Assembly (NCBI GenBank): GCA_963718875.1
Contig: OY970378.1
Coordinates: 132,396-196,395, forward strand
DNA: 64,000 bases
DNA from: Candidatus Parcubacteria bacterium
GTDB taxonomy: Bacteria > Patescibacteriota > Saccharimonadia > UBA4664 > JBIOIQ01
Direction: 5' to 3'
Shown: piece by piece, positions 3,883 to 58,225 of the stretch
Numbering within the stretch: position 1 is the stretch's first letter
Layout of the letters: every line of letters begins with the position of its first letter
Notes under the pieces: model-generated
The model's input: the letters and a program-made list of their open reading frames with translations, nothing else
What the model was told of the DNA's origin: nothing
Databases searched by the model: none
Translations under genes and position numbers: made by a program

Positions 3883-6496
3883 CTAACTTTGATAGTAACA
3901 ATTTGGCCTCGACTTGGCTATCACGAGTTTCTTGAACTACGCTGGCGGGGGCGGAAGAAACGTAACGCTCGTTGGCCAGGCGGGCGTCTAAACTATCTAG
4001 GTAAGCCTGCTTATCTGCCCTCATTTTTGACAACCTGGCTTTTCGGGCACTAATCAACGCATCGTCGGCTTGAATCCATGCTGGAGCGCTACTCCCGAGG
4101 TACAGACCACTCCCCTGCTCCACTAGTTTGATCTCTGTTACCCTTGCAAGATGTTTAATTAAATCTGCGTATTGAACCAGTTTTGGCTCAGTTGTGAGGA
4201 TGGTGGGCCTATCTAGCTTTTCTTCCGTTGCAATGGCTCTGATTTGGAGGGTTGTTTCTTGAATACGGTTAAAATCTTCAACTAAGCTTATATTAGCCGA
4301 ATTGTTAGAATCCGATTCCGGCCAAGGGCTAACAATCAGATCTGCTTTTTGCCACGGCATATTTTGCCAAATGGCCTCTGTTACGAAAGGCGCGGTGGGA
4401 TGAAGCAGTTTTAAAACTGTCTCTAACCCGTAAACTAAGAGGTCGTGATTAGGTGAAATCTTGGATGCCTCAACATACCAGTCGGCAAAATCGTCCCAAA
4501 GCAGAGCGTAAACCATCTGGCCGGCTTCGGAAAAGCGGTAGCTATCGATTGCTTTGGTAACATTCTGGACTGCTTGGTCGAGTTGGTATTTGATCCAGTG
4601 GTCGGCTGGGGCGTTGAGCTGTGGTTCGGCAGGTGTGTAATCGGCTGGCAGTTTGGCCAAGATGAACCTGGCAACATTCCATAGTTTGTTACAAAAATTG
4701 CGGTAGCCTTCAATTTTTTCTTTTCCGAGTGAGCCATTATTCCCGGGTGTAATCCCAATGGTTAGTGCTAAACGAAGAGCATCGGTGCCGTATGTGGCGG
4801 TGTATTCCAGAGGATTAATAACGTTTCCTTTAGATTTACTCATTTTTTTACCTTGTGCATCGTTGACCATGCCCCATAGGTAGACGGTTTTAAAGGGAGG
4901 CAGTTTAAAGCGATAATAACTAAACATCACCATCCGGCTCACCCATAAAAATATAATGTCGCGAGCAGTAGCCATTACGCTGGTGGGGTAAAACTGCTCA
5001 AAATCACCGGTGGCCATGAGGGTAGCGTAAGGCCATTGACCGCTAGAAAACCAAGTATCGAAGGTATCGGTTTCGGTCTCGTAATTATTTTTGCCATAGT
5101 AATCAATGGCTTCATCCTCATTGAAGGCAATGATGTAGGGTTTTTTGGTGGTATCAGAAGAGGCATTGTAATAGATGGGGATAGTTATTCCAAACCAGTT
5201 TTGGCGGCTAATGTTCCAATCGCGTAGGTTTTCCATCCAATCCAAGTAGACTTTTTCGTAACGCTTGGGGACTATTTTGATCTCACCATCCTTAACGGCC
5301 TTGATGGCTGGCTGTTTGAGTTCGGCCACCTTAAGCCACCACTGCTCAGTAACTAGTGGCTCTATTAGGGTGCCACAGCGGTCGTGAAAGGAAACGCTAT
5401 GCTTGTAATCCATTTCAACATGGTCAATTAACCCCCTTTCCTCAAGGTCATGGGCAACTTGCTCTCTAGCTTCGGCTACAGGCATGCCGGCGTATTTACC
5501 TGTTAGGTTGGTTAGCAGTCCGTCTGTCCCAATGGCTTGTTTGACCTCCAGGTCGTGACGTAACCCCATTTCCCAGTCGTTGGGGTCATGTGCAGGAGTA
5601 ACCTTAACTACACCTGTACCAAAGGCTGGGTCAACAAAGTCGTCTGCAATAACCTTGAGCTTGAATTTTCCAAGCAGGCCTTCGGCTTCAATCTCTTGGC
5701 CAATATACTGCGTGTAGCGCTCGTCCTTGGGGTTTACAGCAATGGCGGTATCACCAAATTTTGTTTCAGGCCGGACAGTAGCAAGTATAAACGGGCCGTA
5801 TTTGATGTAATATAACGGGTCAATTTGCTCACGATACTTGATTTCTAGGTCGCTAAAGCCGGAGCGGCAATGAGGGCACCAGTTAACTATGCGATTGCCG
5901 CGGTAAATTAAGCCATCATCGTGCATTTGCTTGAAGGTTTCATAGACGGTACGGACGATGTCGTCGTCCAAGGTGAACTTAAAACGGCTCCAATCGACGC
6001 TAAAGCCCAGGCTGCGGAGTTGAGCTGTTACATTGGCCATGTTCTTTTTTGTAAAAGCTAAGGCACTTTGATAAAACTGCTCACGACCGAGGTCAAATCG
6101 ACTTTTACCCTCTTTGGCCAGCTCGCGCTCGTAGACCACTTGAGTTTCGATACCAGCGTGGTCAGCTCCAGGGAGCCACAAGGTTGGATCCCCTTTCATG
6201 CGGTGGTATCTAGCCATAATGTCCTCGACCACATACATAACGTGGCCAGTGTGCAGGTCGCCGTTGGCATTAGGCGGTGGCATGATTACACTAAACGGCT
6301 CTCGATCAGGTATTGAGTTGTGAGTTGTGAGTTGTGAGTCATTTGTGCTTATCTCTCGACTCGCTTGAACTGAGCCTGTCGAATGGTCGACTCTTGACTC
6401 TTGACTCGAGGTGGGCTTGAAGGCGCCAGAATCTTCCCACATTTTATAAATGTCGGCCTCGTATTTGGCCGGTTCGTAACTTTTTGGTAACTCCAT
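3845..6496 (-). CDS. valS: valine--tRNA ligase (ValRS)
   Basis: 883 aa. HIGH motif (PPPNANGDLHTGH), KMSKS motif (KMSKSKGN), class I aaRS editing and anticodon-binding regions, C-terminal coiled coil. The N-terminus carries an extra ~30-aa low-complexity insert encoded by a tandem-heptamer palindromic segment (6300-6420). Confidence 0.92.
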   Translation of the reverse strand: MELPKSYEPAKYEADIYKMWEDSGAFKPTSSQESRVDHSTGSVQASREISTNDSQLTTHNSIPDREPFSVIMPPPNANGDLHTGHVMYVVEDIMARYHRMKGDPTLWLPGADHAGIETQVVYERELAKEGKSRFDLGREQFYQSALAFTKKNMANVTAQLRSLGFSVDWSRFKFTLDDDIVRTVYETFKQMHDDGLIYRGNRIVNWCPHCRSGFSDLEIKYREQIDPLYYIKYGPFILATVRPETKFGDTAIAVNPKDERYTQYIGQEIEAEGLLGKFKLKVIADDFVDPAFGTGVVKVTPAHDPNDWEMGLRHDLEVKQAIGTDGLLTNLTGKYAGMPVAEAREQVAHDLEERGLIDHVEMDYKHSVSFHDRCGTLIEPLVTEQWWLKVAELKQPAIKAVKDGEIKIVPKRYEKVYLDWMENLRDWNISRQNWFGITIPIYYNASSDTTKKPYIIAFNEDEAIDYYGKNNYETETDTFDTWFSSGQWPYATLMATGDFEQFYPTSVMATARDIIFLWVSRMVMFSYYRFKLPPFKTVYLWGMVNDAQGKKMSKSKGNVINPLEYTATYGTDALRLALTIGITPGNNGSLGKEKIEGYRNFCNKLWNVARFILAKLPADYTPAEPQLNAPADHWIKYQLDQAVQNVTKAIDSYRFSEAGQMVYALLWDDFADWYVEASKISPNHDLLVYGLETVLKLLHPTAPFVTEAIWQNMPWQKADLIVSPWPESDSNNSANISLVEDFNRIQETTLQIRAIATEEKLDRPTILTTEPKLVQYADLIKHLARVTEIKLVEQGSGLYLGSSAPAWIQADDALISARKARLSKMRADKQAYLDSLDARLANERYVSSAPASVVQETRDSQVEAKLLLSKLDEQIQAISQAQK

Positions 6497-6588
6497 AGTC
6501 AGTTAAGTATAGCTAAGTAAGGCCTTAGGCTGCAAATGAACGCAAGCTAATTTTCATTTGATCAAGTTTAAGCCTCCATTGCCTACTT

Positions 6589-6630
6589 GTCATCCTGAAC
6601 CGTCAGCTGATGGTTGTTTCAGGATCTCTT
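6589..6630 (-). repeat. REP/RPE-like palindromic element (family 1, AGATCC-hairpin-GGATGAC)
   Basis: GTCATCCTGAAC...GTTTCAGGATCTCTT is the reverse complement of AAGAGATCCTGAAAC...GTTCAGGATGAC. Matches copies at 26768, 32790, 36929 and others. Confidence 0.6.
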
Positions 6631-6654
6631 AAACTAATTTTTTACATGTTCAAC

Positions 6655-6790
6655 AGATCCAAAAGCGCAGTTATGTTTCAAAATGCTGAAAGCGTTTTTT
6701 CTGCGTGAAAACATAAGCGTTATGCAAATTGGCTAACTTTTAATCTTTGAATTTTGGAACTTTTTGCTTGTGAACTAATTTGATGGTTGG
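6655..6790 (+). repeat. direct repeat copy 1 (about 110 bp, terminator-like hairpin AAACGCT-CAA-AGCGTTT plus CATAA-GCG-TTATG)
   Basis: About 85% identical to 7141-7270 (shared ...GTGAAAACATAAGCGTTATGCAAAYTGGCTAA...). Confidence 0.6.
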
Positions 6791-7140
6791 TGTGCTACTT
6801 AGATTAGATTTAAGTATGTTGTCATCTCGACTCACGTGGAGAGATCTTTCTGGATGGGTTTTTGCACCGGTGCCTCCCGTGCAATGCAAATTAGCCTCAT
6901 TCTGCAATTATCGAGGAGGGGTTTGTGCGCCAAAATGATGTATTCTGGCTTATTTTATACTTAAGAGTATACATGCACGGGAGGCACCCGTGTCTTGACC
7001 GAGAAGCCGAAAGAAAGTTACGAACGCATCTGGGAAAAACACAGCATAGCAATAGCGTACTTGATCGGTGGGTTAGAGATAATTTAAGGGATGAAGCGCG
7101 TCGAGTTGCGGCAGAAAGAGGTGAAGCGGCGTAGAGCTTG

Positions 7141-7270
7141 CAACAGATTTAAAATAGCCATTATGTTTTAAAACGCTCAAAGCGTTTTTTTAGTGTGAAA
7201 ACATAAGCGTTATGCAAACTGGCTAAATTATAATCATTGAGTTTTGTAAGTTTTGTTTGTTGACCTGATC
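7141..7270 (+). repeat. direct repeat copy 2 (partner of 6655-6790)
   Basis: See copy 1. Together they bracket an about 350-bp segment containing a K-type REP (6829-6857) and an 18-bp inverted repeat (6861-6879 / 6977-6995). Confidence 0.6.
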
Positions 7271-7544
7271 TAAGGTTTCAACCAGCATTTTTTGTAACTT
7301 CAAGACCTGGTCTTGACTAACGCGTTTAAAACTTGGGTCAGGCCTCAGGCCCGCCCGCGGGGGTCGTGGACCCCTACGGACGGACACTGAGGGTTTCTCA
7401 CCGAGCGCAGTAGAGCCACGTTCGGCAAGATTGGAGCCCGCAGGCCCTGGTTCGGAAGATGGGGGTTCCTTGCCTGGGCCTGCGGGGGAATTGCCGGTCG
7501 AGTCACGCATAGTGTGTACCCGCCGGCAAGATGGTTGCGCCGGA

Positions 7545-31214: not shown

Positions 31215-31305
<91 letters not shown>

Positions 31306-54560: not shown

Positions 54561-55056
54561 GCTACGTTTGAAGGGTTAAGCCTGTGTTTTACCCTGATTA
54601 CTCCTTCGGACCCTCCAAGGGAGTGCGCAAGCTCGTAGTAGTTTTCCCGAGAAAGGGGAAATCGATGAACCTCCTCATGGGAGGCGGCGGCCTCTAGCCG
54701 TCGTCCAATGCGAGACACCTCCGGCCATCCAGGCTGAGAACCTCGCATCGCAACACCTGGATCTGCCGGTCGGGCATTGGCCCGGTATCGACACGATCGA
54801 GCGATGACCGCGAGTATGGCGGTCAAAAAAAGCCAGATCTGGCGGTGGGCATCAACCCCCACATACCGTCGAGATCGAACAGCACCCGCGTTCAACGCGG
54901 TCGCAGTTGCAAAAGTAATACTTCCAAACATCGGCTCCTTTGGGGCCACACCGTTTGCTGGAGGGCATGGAACCGGGAATCGCCTGGTAACCACCCTCCA
55001 GCAAACGGAACACATTTTATGAAGCTGTATTTGCACGGCAATGGCCGTGTTTTTTA
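54561..55056 (+). ncRNA. candidate ~500-nt structured ncRNA (promoter to terminator)
   Basis: GC-rich and hairpin-dense. Ends at CACGGCAATGGCCGTG plus TTTTTT (55034-55056). The overlapping ORFs are antisense or RBS-less. Confidence 0.35.
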
Positions 55057-55401
55057 TGCATTATTCCCTGAGCCTGAATGACGGCAGTCAGGCTTGTCGA
55101 AAAAAAAGGGGGGGTTAATGGCCTTCGACTAGGCTCAGGCAGTAGCTAAGTTTACTTTTGCCGACATTAATTTTAGTTACTTTAACAGATACGAAACAAA
55201 GAATTTTAATAAAAACTGTAAAAAAGTATTGACATAAATATATTATGTATGCTAGGCTTGTGAAGTTGTGAAAATAACGTCAAATGTTATGGACACAATA
55301 GTACATTTACTTTTTGTTCTTGCTTACTATTGCATTAACTTTCCGTCAATTGAGCTAAACATTTAACTTAGTTGTCGGAAAGCTATGGGAGGGGGTGAGC
55401 A

Positions 55402-55560
55402 ATGGACGAGTTCGAATACATTCTCTTGCTTGCGCTGTTGATGGGCTATTCGCCCTTCGACATCTGCATGTTCTTCTTTGGGCTGGGCTGCGAGAGCGGC
55501 CACGCCTGTGCGAGGGAGCAGCAGGAGCGCGAGTGGGAGCAGGCCCGGATCGGCTACTAG
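55402..55560 (+). CDS. small membrane protein (52 aa), candidate
   Basis: GGAGGGGGTGAGCA-ATG RBS. Hydrophobic core plus Cys-containing tail. Immediately upstream of the tRNA-like element. Confidence 0.35.
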   Translation: MDEFEYILLLALLMGYSPFDICMFFFGLGCESGHACAREQQEREWEQARIGY

Positions 55561-55590
55561 TCGGTGGAGTGGTCGCCCTAAGCGACTAAG

Positions 55591-55665
55591 AGGGCTGATT
55601 GGTTTCGCTTGGAATGGTCGCATTTGCGAACTGACCAAGCCCGGGTTCGATTCCCGGCAGCTCTA
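55591..55665 (+). ncRNA. tRNA-like element resembling the tmRNA tRNA-like domain (Ala identity features), no tag ORF
   Basis: 7-bp acceptor stem AGGGCTG/CAGCTCT with a G3:U70 wobble and A73 discriminator. Canonical T-arm CCGGG-TTCGATT-CCCGG. No D-stem. 5' AGGGCUGAUU and 3' GGGUUCGAUUCCCGGCAGCUC mimic the tmRNA ends, but only a short hairpin sits between them. Confidence 0.45.
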
Positions 55666-56037
55666 CTTATGGCGAAAAACAGCAGGAAAACGTTACGAGT
55701 TGGCCGAGCCAGCTCATCCTCCCAGAGGTTCGTCTGGGGCGTAATCTTCGGCCCAGACGCCGAACGATACGTCGAGATCACGTCTGATCTGCTTTTTCCT
55801 CCTACGGAGGCAGAAGCACGATGGAGGCTTGGCCTCCCTGACGGCACTCCGGTGTTGGTCGGCTGCCCCTAAGGCAGATCTGCGGCGTTCGGCTACGCCA
55901 AGAACCTTGAAGGAGCATAGCTCCAAGTTGCGCTCTGGGCTAGAGCGAAAACAAAAGCTGGCCAATAGGTGTGGCCATCAAGCTCGGTTCAGAGCAACCT
56001 GTAACCCATTCAAGCGTTAATTTTTTCGCGCTTGAAT

Positions 56038-56124
56038 GGGAGCTGTCATCCACTAAGTAGTGGATCTGATGAGTCCTTCGATTCGTCCTGCGGGTGCGGG
56101 ACTCGCTCAGGACGAAACGGCTGC
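56038..56124 (+). ncRNA. hammerhead ribozyme, type III (copy 1)
   Basis: Stem III 5' strand GGAGCUGUC^A. Stem I hairpin TCCACT-AAGT-AGTGGA. Core CUGAUGA. Stem II GUCC...GGAC with an internal hairpin. Then GAAAC and stem III 3' strand GGCUGC. Predicted cleavage after C56047. Confidence 0.8.
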
Positions 56125-56897
56125 ATATTTAACATTTGGGAGTCGACTTTCGAAACTGGCGCAGATAGTCTGCTTCGGTTTCGGAAGTCGCAAACTTCCA
56201 GCCAAGTCCCATACCAGAAAAACTCAAAAGGTTCCCGGGCCAATCGGGCGCGCTCCTGAGCGTGGTACCCAAAATGGGTGAGAGTAAGAGATAAAAGTCC
56301 GCGCCATCCTTAATAGGGCTGGTTAAGAAAGTCGGACTGGGGTAACTCTACTGGTTTAAAGTGCGTCTCTCTTCCCCAGGAGGTGTTGGGTGGAACCAGC
56401 AACTTCTTTTATAAGAGAACGCAATGTCTAAAAAGGATGATGCCTCTTTGGCAGTACGCCAAAGCAAGGCTCTCCCAAGTTCGCCACCAGAAACCAGTCG
56501 GTATCGCGTACGTCCGCGACTCGCGAGTGCGGCCCGCACTGTCATCCCCAGTAGGGAAGACAATATCCTCTCCCATCGTGGGAAAGGAAGGGTACTGGCA
56601 GTAATGTGAAAAGACCAAACCCGGACGATAACCCGTCCACGCTAGTCCAGGGGAAAAGCTCCTGGGATGCGGTCGCGAGAGTGGCGGGGGATGAACAAAT
56701 TGGTCTGGGGGAATCACTGGTGAAATTGCGGGTTCGGTCCCCAGAGTTGTTGGCCTGAAAAACCAATAATCTTCACATCCGAACTCGTAGGCTCGACGGC
56801 ACAGGAGTAAGCCATGGCGCAGGTTAAACCGCGACAAAAACTCCTTCTCGAAGAGAGAGCTCCTTGATCGCTTTAAGTGACCGAGTGAGACCTCTTC

Positions 56898-56984
56898 GAG
56901 GCAGTTCCTCCGATGTGTGTCGGAGCTGATGAGTCCTTCGATTCTTCCCATCTAAGTGGGATCGCTCAGGACGAAAACTGCGGG
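56898..56984 (+). ncRNA. hammerhead ribozyme, type III (copy 2)
   Basis: GAGGCAGUUC^ then stem I CTCCGA-TGTGTG-TCGGAG, CUGAUGAGUCC...GGACGAAA, stem III ACUGC. Stem I and the stem II insert differ from copy 1 but remain hairpins (compensatory changes). About 50 nt upstream of the RBS of the 57035 lipoprotein gene. Confidence 0.8.
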
Positions 56985-57034
56985 TTGCAACGGTTGGTTT
57001 GCGCTCTTTGTCTTTGTGAGAAAGGAGGCAGGGA

Positions 57035-57403
57035 ATGCAAACCAAAAGCAATACCCACCGGAGCCGCACGGTCATCGCGGCAGTCACATTTGCTCTGTTC
57101 GTCGCAGTCTCGACGTCGGCTTGTGCCAGCTCGCTGTGGAGCGTAACGCCTCTCCCCAGGATGTACGCCTGCAGCTACACGAGCCAGCCGACGCAGGGCC
57201 AGACACTGTCGGCCGTTGCCGTCGCGACCTACAACCGTCAAGGACAAGGGGTTGACGACTGGAAGGCACTGATTCGTGAGCGCAGCCACTACATTGGGGC
57301 TGACACAGCTGTTCTGGATCCCAACCTGACTCTCGTCATCCCGCGCATCTGTGAGGAGGGGGAGCAGTCGGGTTCGGTCAGCAGCGACGTTCCGGCGTCT
57401 TAG
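57035..57403 (+). CDS. lipoprotein (hypothetical, weak LysM-like C-terminus)
   Basis: AAAGGAGG RBS. Signal plus lipobox STSAC. 122 aa. Confidence 0.55.
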   Translation: MQTKSNTHRSRTVIAAVTFALFVAVSTSACASSLWSVTPLPRMYACSYTSQPTQGQTLSAVAVATYNRQGQGVDDWKALIRERSHYIGADTAVLDPNLTLVIPRICEEGEQSGSVSSDVPAS

Positions 57404-57608
57404 GCAGCCCAGTAGACGAGCAAAATGGTTAGCGCGACCAACCCGCATCAAGCGGACAACGCGTCACAATATCACTTCCCTTCGATCGACTTAATGGCTG
57501 ATCGAAGGCCAACCCAGCGCTTCAAAAGTTGAATTTGAAGTTTTAGGCTGGCTATTAAAGCCTATTCAGACATCCCAGAATCAAGACCTCGGTCAGCAGC
57601 GCCATTAT

Positions 57609-57995
57609 TTACATAAATGGGCGGGTTGCTTGGGCGAGGTTTTTGGTTTTATGACTGGATTTTAAGTGCAACCTATACTCGACCTGAGATACTAATTCTT
57701 TTAGACGCTTTAGTTCTTCTCCCAGGAACTCCTGCCCAAAGCCAGCAATAGAGTAGGTTCTAGAAGTGTGGCCGGGGTGATGACTCTCCGAGCTTTCAAC
57801 CATGTAAAATTTTTCAAGCCTGTTTAAGGTGCGGGATATTGATCCATAACTGAACTTCGGCTCGTCTACGGCATCTTTTTGGCACAGTTTGACTAGTTCG
57901 TAAGCGTTGGCTCTTCGCTTTAACAAGACGCTTAAGATTCTTATATCCAATAAGCTGAGTCTGATTTGATCGTCATGCTTCAGAGACTTTACCAT
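57609..57995 (-). CDS. PadR-family transcriptional regulator (start uncertain)
   Basis: Winged-helix PadR pattern (YELVKLCQKD...GSISRTLNRLEKFYMVES). Upstream palindromes TTGAGATA/TATCTCAA are likely operators. Confidence 0.55.
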   Translation of the reverse strand: MVKSLKHDDQIRLSLLDIRILSVLLKRRANAYELVKLCQKDAVDEPKFSYGSISRTLNRLEKFYMVESSESHHPGHTSRTYSIAGFGQEFLGEELKRLKELVSQVEYRLHLKSSHKTKNLAQATRPFM

Positions 57996-58225
57996 GGTTT
58001 TATTATATATCTTATTGAGATACATGGAAATATATTGTTTGAGCTCAACTACTTGATATACGATATATCTCAATGAGATATATGTGAAAAGAGGAAGGGG
58101 TTAGGTAGTACTACGAATGATGAATCGAGGATGCCAAAAAAAGTTATCAGTGTCGAGGGTTACAAAATGTAAGAGACAAGAGATCTATTAAAAGAGGTCG
58201 GCTGAGTTACGCTATACTATAGGGC

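Follow-up and report, generated by a model that had tools for sequence, protein, structure and literature searches.

Two predicted hammerhead ribozymes bracket a conserved, structured, apparently non-coding RNA on a Saccharimonadia chromosome

Two hammerhead ribozyme motifs on the + strand of a 64-kb stretch of contig OY970378.1 (the whole stretch is called the window) bracket an interval of 860 nt (56048-56907) that is predicted to be excised as RNA. The excised piece would comprise the body of the first hammerhead (HH1), a structured body of ~780 nt and the 5' strand of stem III of the second hammerhead (HH2). With moderate confidence the interval is read as the body of an undescribed, lineage-restricted large structured non-coding RNA (ncRNA), with the hammerheads acting as transcript punctuation and the product being linear. 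The layout of the locus, the ribozyme motifs, their conservation and the structured, non-coding nature of the cargo are read from sequence comparison. The window is a chromosome segment of a member of the Saccharimonadia, within the candidate phyla radiation (CPR; Patescibacteria), and carries housekeeping genes (ValRS, TsaD, FemAB, Mur ligase, GroEL, DnaG, sigma-70, PolA, Fpg and holA); metagenome-assembled genomes of Candidatus Saccharimonadia or Saccharimonadales are its nearest named relatives.

HH1 (type III, 56041-56122, + strand) has a complete core and three stems and would cleave after C56047. Its stem III is formed by AGCUGU and ACGGCU, and its stem I hairpin by AUCCAC-UAAGUA-GUGGAU; the core CUGAUGA is followed by an extended stem II of 41 nt, with the internal-loop motif UCCUUCGA...UCGCUCAGGA, and then by GAAA. 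HH2 (type III, 56901-56981, + strand), for which cleavage is predicted after C56907, is likewise complete, with stem III GCAGUU/AACUGC, stem I CUCCGA-UGUGUG-UCGGAG, a core identical to that of HH1, and a stem II of 40 nt that shares the extended base and carries a different distal hairpin. Both motifs have CUGAUGA...GAAA, an A15.1-U16.1 pair and C17, as in the type-III core, and each forms three helices (6 pairs in stem I, at least 4 in stem II and 6 in stem III). When a type-III descriptor was applied to both strands of the window (128 kb), HH1 and HH2 were returned and no other site; among 300 dinucleotide shuffles no site was found in 297, one site in 3 and two sites in none. HH1 and HH2 are taken to be genuine type-III hammerheads, functional-looking in core and stems. 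Hammerhead self-cleavage leaves a 5'-OH and a 2',3'-cyclic phosphate. An earlier note on this DNA had placed two same-strand hammerheads here and drawn from them a piece running from 56048 to 56907; both motifs proved to be complete and on the + strand, and the piece matches the cut sites C56047 and C56907 exactly.

Relatives of the locus were recovered through proteins (the contig L002 through PolA, the others through a small open reading frame (ORF) at the head of the unit), and units without the small ORF would be missed. The order of the unit is a candidate promoter, an ORF of 52 aa, a tRNA domain resembling that of transfer-messenger RNA (tmRNA) and lacking a coding sequence (CDS; the domain is hereafter called the mini-tmRNA), a structured spacer, HH1, an RNA of ~0.7-0.9 kb and, usually, HH2. 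It was seen as DNA in the window and four other lineages, and as a gene list in one more. L002 is a Logan contig with a PolA 79% identical to that of the window, and the whole unit is present in it between the same neighbours; homology starts near 55150, in an AT-rich promoter-like block, and ends directly after HH2. A profile search with the small ORF gave three distant members, on contigs L085/L086, L087/L088 and L089/L090, which have in common the order TrmB-like gene, small ORF, mini-tmRNA, spacer and HH1, followed by the large RNA wherever the contig reaches far enough. The closest relative is L085/L086, represented by two independent, identical assemblies, in which the TrmB-like protein is 91% identical. 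Homologues of the large RNA were located at 5069-5935 of L002, 3749-4640 of L085 and 4774-5513 of L087.

The hammerheads were conserved along with this order. HH1 was present in all five lineages (window, L002, L085, L087, L089) with its core intact and its stems covarying, and HH2 in three of four, namely the window, L002 (5880-5933) and L087 (about 5457-5510, with U.U at 10.1-11.1). Of the 180 stem pairs in the 12 hammerheads of these loci, 179 were canonical; several pair types were seen at each stem position, and the core was kept. A strong hairpin, of a sequence that varies by lineage, stands 5' of every one of the 12 cleavage sites, 4-8 nt from the scissile bond. For HH1 it is a 12-bp hairpin at 56005-56040 (+ strand; pairing read from sequence) that abuts stem III and would form the 3'-terminal hairpin of the predicted upstream cleavage product; for HH2 it is a long hairpin at 56846-56900 (+ strand), directly 5' of the ribozyme, which is present in the window, L002 and L087 with varying sequence and would terminate the excised RNA itself. 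In L087 four hammerheads lie within 2.6 kb (4767-7402) and separate, in order, the large RNA, an ORF of 168 aa and a pair of ORFs of 109 and 123 aa. This array, together with homologous ORFs that follow a hammerhead in the window and in L087, supports a role of the predicted ribozymes as separators. Two variants occur in the L087 array, one hammerhead having U.U at 10.1-11.1 and one having CUGACGA and an extra U.

The unit lies in an accessory, variable region between a dNMP-kinase gene and polA. Its flanking genes are constant across the loci (TrmB-like on one side and PadR-like, convergent, on the other), and the genes downstream of the unit differ in every genome; PADLOC and NCBIfam searches of the neighbouring small proteins gave only generic winged helix-turn-helix matches. 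The unit was missing from the polA neighbourhoods of L003, L004 and L005, whose PolA is 71-75% identical to that of the window, and it is therefore regarded as an accessory module of a subclade. By nhmmer the large RNA is single-copy at each locus, with no second copy in the window. A metagenome scan with two conserved blocks of the RNA gave 0 matches. Matches to two RNA blocks of 15-16 nt at 79 viral loci were dismissed as chance, similarity not extending beyond the blocks; two stricter patterns from the 3' domain of the RNA gave 0 matches in the viral collections, and blastn of the unit against phage genomes gave none.

The extended stem II was also used as a signature. Its base UCCUUCGA...UCGCUCAGGA (56073-56116 and 56933-56975 of the window) recurs identically in a hammerhead of L001 (5124-5177), an unrelated metagenome-assembled genome of Candidatus Shapirobacteria that was the one match in the GTDB genomes and the sole other match in 596 Gb of genomes; 0 matches were found in viral contigs and 0 in JGI metagenomes. 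The window's lineage is apparently missing from the DNA collections scanned. The orthologous ribozymes of L002, L085, L087 and L089 have a minimal stem II. The extended form could be a transferable or convergent tertiary-contact module, and copies that share a locus appear to evolve in concert. At the L001 locus (3978-5186 of JBAZZE010000019.1), which is unrelated and also of CPR origin, two type-III hammerheads surround a membrane-protein ORF of 229 aa; the same hairpin-containing repeat of ~55 nt precedes each of them, and their stem III strands are identical. As a circle, the L001 cassette would rebuild a perfect hammerhead, which the window element would not.

The bracketed RNA was compared between lineages for signs of coding. 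It is 67% identical between the window and L002, and 14 of the 16 insertions or deletions that separate the two are not multiples of three. Its substitutions show no three-base periodicity (p=0.64), against p=8e-78 for polA and p=1e-22 for the TrmB-like gene. No + strand ORF is conserved in the segment; the one at 56424-56609 was rejected, since its L002 orthologue stops after 5 codons. The marks of a protein gene (conserved frame, third-position bias, homologues) were lacking across the segment, and by these comparisons the bracketed RNA is non-coding. The earlier note had named a conserved protein-coding ORF with ribosome footprints as one of two results that would overturn its proposal, and comparison revealed no conserved coding ORF on either strand. 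It is extremely improbable that the minus-strand ORF at 56409-56951 (180 aa, a gene-finder call) encodes a protein and that the + strand RNA is its antisense regulator. Its frame is open in the window (165 codons) and in L002 (146 codons), with 42% identity by BLASTP, but among 5.8 billion proteins only its own locus and that of L002 match, as was also the case when it was used as a probe for further loci, and it has no Pfam, NCBIfam or PADLOC match. Its mismatches are spread evenly over codon positions (48/44/60), and its pN is 0.37 against 0.12-0.15 in real genes. The alignment consists partly of frame-shifted stretches, the window and L002 versions start at different positions, and stop-free runs as long as this ORF occur in 5-12% of shuffles.

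Comparison of folds indicates that the bracketed segment is a conserved, structured RNA. Its minimum free energy (MFE) is -345 kcal/mol (z = -6.3; opposite strand z = -6.4). The consensus fold of the window and L002 has 181 pairs, 36 of them with compensatory double changes. When a fold computed from the window only was scored on L002, 30 of 41 doubly changed pairs were kept and 11 broken, compared with 7-14 kept and 16-26 broken in slid controls. The most conserved part is the 3' domain of the excised RNA (56596-56852, + strand), about 78% identical even to L087, the most distant relative. In the four available sequences this domain has 52 pairs with 96% of cells paired; 12 pairs are changed on both sides, against 0-2 in slid controls, and none of 500 shuffles reached the observed values. 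The richness in hairpins that the earlier note reported is borne out by these figures, and the GC richness it named holds only mildly (52.8% against about 49% for the window). Two internal echoes were observed in the large RNA, CCAAGUCCCAUACCAGAAA resembling CCAAGUUCGCCACCAGAAA (56202-56220 and 56475-56493) and CUGGUUUAAAGUGCG resembling CUGGUGAAAUUGCGG (56350-56366 and 56716-56732); they suggest a duplicated sub-domain or alternative long-range ACCAG/CUGGU pairings.

No Rfam 15 family was found for the bracketed RNA, at E<=10 in 55000-58000 or at E<=0.5 in the whole window, and the large ncRNA families of Rfam had no match at E<=0.1 in L085, L087, L088 or L089. RNase P RNA, group II intron and GOLLD/ROOL/OLE were considered for the segment and were supported by none of the Rfam models; nor did the covariance models place it in HEARO or in other Rfam large ncRNAs. 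A tmRNA body (tag ORF and pseudoknots) was rejected likewise, having neither Rfam support nor a conserved tag-like ORF. The absence of RNase P, group II and tmRNA matches inside the segment agrees with the earlier note, and a tmRNA-like tRNA domain does sit upstream, at 55591-55668.

Several results weigh against the reading of the interval as a hammerhead-bounded large ncRNA. The Rfam hammerhead model RF00008 scores HH1 at 30.1 bits (3-kb search, E=0.001), short of the gathering score of 48.5, HH2 was not reported in the Rfam search, and the compact orthologous hammerheads also fall below the threshold, at 24-35 bits. The gathering score is a curated threshold and not a structural requirement, and part of the shortfall of the window hammerheads is due to the 40-nt insert in stem II; because the scores lie below it, the identification rests on the complete core, the three stems and their conservation. 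HH2 is absent in L085/L086, where the large RNA is nevertheless conserved, and a ribozyme-defined 3' end is thus not universal. Past the large RNA, unrelated sequence of about 170 nt leads up to the shared terminator module in these contigs; no self-cleaving ribozyme that might substitute for HH2 was detected in L085 at E<=10. It follows that not every lineage requires a 3' end with a 2',3'-cyclic phosphate. The middle third of the large RNA is variable and has no recognisable version in L087, and with four full-length homologues in the comparison much of the 0.8-kb structure is weakly determined. The candidate promoter at 55229-55258 was not listed by a promoter consensus scan.

A mechanism may be outlined in which we infer promoter use, self-cleavage, end protection and RNase P/Z release of the tRNA-like domain. 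A single composite transcript would run from the candidate promoter through the leader, the small-ORF message, the tRNA-like domain, the spacer, HH1, the large RNA and HH2 to the terminator module, and in this genome only would also include a lipoprotein-like message. HH1 and HH2 would cut co-transcriptionally and part the large RNA from its neighbours without host RNases, and the tRNA-like domain would be released by RNase P and the 3' tRNA-processing nuclease, as the biology of tRNA and tmRNA suggests. At its 5' end the large RNA would carry the folded HH1 body, with the 5'-OH nucleotide paired in stem I, and at its 3' end the long hairpin and a 7-nt tail with a 2',3'-cyclic phosphate; judging from RNase specificities, both ends would be poor substrates for 5'-end-dependent RNases and 3' exonucleases. 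Cleavage at HH2 would also leave the 122-aa ORF downstream on an mRNA of its own that begins with a 5'-OH. The large RNA most likely acts as a stable linear RNA. Its fixed linkage to the mini-tmRNA, the strongest pointer to a function and yet no more than a hint, suggests an accessory role related to translation or to ribosomes.

That an RtcB-type ligase joins the two ends, so that the functional species is a DNA-encoded circular RNA of about 860 nt, is unlikely. The 5'-OH and 2',3'-cyclic-phosphate ends expected from established hammerhead chemistry do suit RtcB. The MFE fold of the window pairs the 3' tail GCAGU with GCUGC just past the HH1 core, which brings C56907 close to A56048, at a junction that resembles that of a hammerhead and contains a 2-nt bulge; in L087 a chimeric stem III, as read from its sequence, would have 4 of 5 pairs, and the identical stem III strands of L001 belong to a CPR cassette whose circle would restore its ribozyme. 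But the end pairing is out of register in the window and lacking in L002, and no covarying helix joins the ends. Stems I and III differ between HH1 and HH2, which share only the core and the base of stem II; L085/L086 keep the RNA but have no HH2; the element is syntenic and present in one copy; and the ten large window ORFs that were tested included no RtcB. Perreault et al. sought circles from clustered bacterial hammerheads and found none (PMC3088659). Of the earlier proposal that the segment is excised as a discrete and possibly circular RNA, excision as a piece of ~860 nt is to be expected from hammerhead chemistry, the conserved ribozymes and the structured non-coding cargo, and the circular part is unsupported. 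Its comparison with retrozymes and viroid-like circles is not borne out, the hammerheads not being repeats, no ribozyme being rebuilt, the element being single-copy and HH2 being absent in the closest relative. An RNA-centred accessory module confined to some Saccharimonadia, in which the mini-tmRNA and the hammerhead-matured RNA act jointly (for instance on ribosomes, in trans-translation or in host interaction) and the large RNA constitutes a new class of functional ncRNA, perhaps circularised in lineages bearing HH2, was also entertained and is considered quite unlikely.

The hammerheads of L087 and L001 flank ordinary protein genes, and the ORF that begins 54 nt downstream of HH2 in the window has its ribosome-binding site within an inverted repeat. 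Such observations would fit hammerheads that only process or insulate neighbouring mRNAs (the small ORF and the lipoprotein-like ORF), with the 0.8-kb stretch as a functionless spacer or untranslated region. This is very unlikely: five lineages conserve the stretch, compensatory changes occur in it and its 3' domain keeps a high identity in L087; the downstream genes vary by genome, and in L002 and L085 the terminator module follows the RNA with no gene in between. It is highly improbable that the locus is a mobile retrozyme- or viroid-like element or a phage-derived insertion and not a host RNA gene. Its variable accessory position, its absence from that position in relatives with 71-75% PolA identity and the one CDS-less tmRNA known from a phage (PMC11915505) point that way. 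Against this, the unit is single-copy, always lies between the TrmB-like and PadR-like genes and diverges in step with its flanking genes; neither terminal repeats nor target-site duplications were found, and phage and viral collections gave no matches.

Compared with known systems, the large ncRNA punctuated by hammerheads is closest in layout to the clustered bacterial hammerheads that flank genes in prophage operons, which were shown to cleave in vitro as well as in vivo and for which a search for circles was negative (PMC3088659). As in those clusters, several same-strand copies within 1-3 kb punctuate a polycistronic transcript and would be expected to yield unit-length RNAs, and L087 and L001 have that same layout around protein genes; the window differs in that its cargo is a large structured ncRNA, on a CPR chromosome and linked to a mini-tmRNA, whereas theirs are protein genes in prophages (PMC3088659). 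With retrozymes and viroid-like circular RNAs (PMC4918200, PMC7229834) it shares type-III hammerheads around a structured non-coding RNA of 600-1000 nt and ends suited to a ligase. Unlike them, its hammerheads are not identical repeats and would not be rebuilt in a circle, it is single-copy and syntenic, and it lacks target-site duplications, primer-binding site and polypurine tract; its predicted fold is branched and not rod-like, it is bacterial and DNA-encoded, and one lineage has no second ribozyme. Neither the repeated ribozymes nor the multi-copy, mobile character of those elements was thus found.

CDS-less tmRNAs have been described from mitochondria, some plastids and mycobacteriophage DS6A, and that of DS6A inhibits host tmRNA in E. 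coli (PMC11915505). The domain at 55591-55668 resembles them (PMC11915505) in that only the tRNA-like part is present, in the standard order and without a tag frame, and in its D-loop analogue, T arm and G3:U70. It differs in being chromosomal, in a free-standing bacterial lineage, and in being flanked, within a longer transcript, by a small ORF and by RNAs that hammerheads would process.

The large RNA also invites comparison with the ornate ncRNAs of other bacteria. GOLLD, ROOL and OLE are large ornate bacterial ncRNAs that often lie beside tRNA genes. The window RNA is like them in its size (0.6-0.9 kb), its multi-domain fold supported by covariation, the tRNA-like gene that it adjoins and its narrow phylogenetic range, and unlike them in its predicted ribozyme-defined ends and in having no Rfam match to those classes. 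Among the papers of the library searched that name hammerheads together with Patescibacteria or Saccharibacteria, none treats such ribozymes in these bacteria. Clustered bacterial hammerheads are known; clusters whose cargo is a conserved large ncRNA, in a CPR host and coupled to a mini-tmRNA, are not.

To our knowledge, the natural roles of bacterial hammerheads are largely obscure. The present locus gives them a readable job, which would be to cut a large ncRNA and neighbouring cassettes from one transcript and leave hairpin-capped ends. CPR bacteria have tiny genomes, and few accessory RNAs are known from them; the cargo is a candidate new class of large structured RNA in this group. If the RNA is functional, the locus would offer a compact system for studying ribozyme-defined ends in vivo, the role of a CDS-less tmRNA in a bacterium, and ribozyme-derived circular RNAs. 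Were the RNA circularised, it would be the first described hammerhead-derived, DNA-encoded circular RNA in bacteria.

The upstream part of the unit begins with a candidate sigma-70-type promoter at 55229-55258 (+ strand), made up of TTGACA, an 18-nt spacer and an extended -10 element TGcTAGGCT. The homology with L002 begins in this AT-rich promoter block, inside which a 14-nt exact match, TTATGTATGCTAGG, was found, and the site is put forward as a candidate promoter of the unit. A conserved leader hairpin (55340-55381, + strand; pairing read from sequence) stands just 5' of the small ORF's ribosome-binding site; aligned with L002, the window shows compensatory differences in it. The first gene of the unit is the small ORF (52 aa, 55402-55560, + strand), which follows a GGAGG-type ribosome-binding site; the N-terminal half of its protein is hydrophobic, and the motif G(C/H)ESGHxC comes after it. 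P0122, from a JGI contig, is 81% identical to it, and P0125, P0126 and P0127, found by profile search, are distant members whose ORFs stand at the head of the same unit in each locus. In the conserved core 6 of 12 codon changes are synonymous by sequence reading, and overall constraint is weak (pN 0.32). The family (52-58 aa) has an HExxH-like motif in most members and is represented by about six lineages among 1.8 billion representative proteins.

In the mini-tmRNA (55591-55668, + strand), which lies 380 nt 5' of HH1, the acceptor stem contains G3:U70, and a D-loop analogue, a canonical T arm and a closed hairpin resembling P2 are present. CCA is not encoded, and an mRNA-like domain is lacking. 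Between its halves there is only a hairpin of about 32 nt, which stands in place of P2, the pseudoknots and the tag ORF; the Rfam match has 22 nt for 314 model positions. The Rfam tmRNA score of the window copy is 44.8 bits, below the gathering score of 47, and those of the L087 and L089 copies are 68.8 and 56.7 bits. Orthologues were located at 4668-4748 of L002, 4250-4329 of L087, 2244-2325 of L089 and about 3340-3415 of L085, beginning 8-30 nt past the stop codon of the small ORF. G3:U70 is invariant in all five lineages, and covariation was seen at pairs 1-72 and 5-68. ARAGORN made no tmRNA call at the domain, and no conserved tag-like ORF was found downstream of it; the tRNA-like part of a tmRNA is thus present, and the mRNA-like part (resume codon, tag ORF, pseudoknots) is not.

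The structured spacer RNA (55669-56004, + strand) is conserved over its first ~240 nt. RNAalifold on the window and L002 gave 87 pairs, 15 with compensatory changes, and the substitutions have no codon periodicity. Weak tmRNA_permuted matches (16.8-28.4 bits) extend from the T arm into the spacer (window 55735-55746, L087 4298-4414, L089 2298-2375), and the spacer holds a second GGGGC...UGAUU-like stretch and a T-arm-like hairpin, CCCAGA-GGUUCG-UCUGGG. This second T-arm-like stretch may be a remnant of a tmRNA duplication or permutation.

Downstream of HH2 lies the lipoprotein-like ORF (122 aa, 57035-57403, + strand), preceded by a ribosome-binding site. The 109-aa ORF of L087, directly behind the hammerhead HH3 of that array, matches it with 39% identity (E=8e-18); the units of L002 and L085 do not include it. 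An inverted repeat at 56994-57045 (20-nt arms, 75% complementary) would sequester its ribosome-binding site and start codon. The unit closes with a 3' terminal module and terminator (57470-57650, + strand), consisting of an outer stem and U tract with an inner hairpin GCGCC...GGGCGG and facing the convergent PadR-like gene. The module, of about 180 nt, is common to L085 (4750-4925), L002 (around 5950-6020) and L087 (around 5530-5580), and is composed of a hairpin, a CCAACCCA stretch and the terminator, in whose loop the second conserved hairpin stands. Elsewhere in the window four tRNA-Ser genes, each with its own anticodon (cga, gct, tga, gga), were noted at 270-1538 and 31215-31304, three of the four lying inside 1.3 kb.

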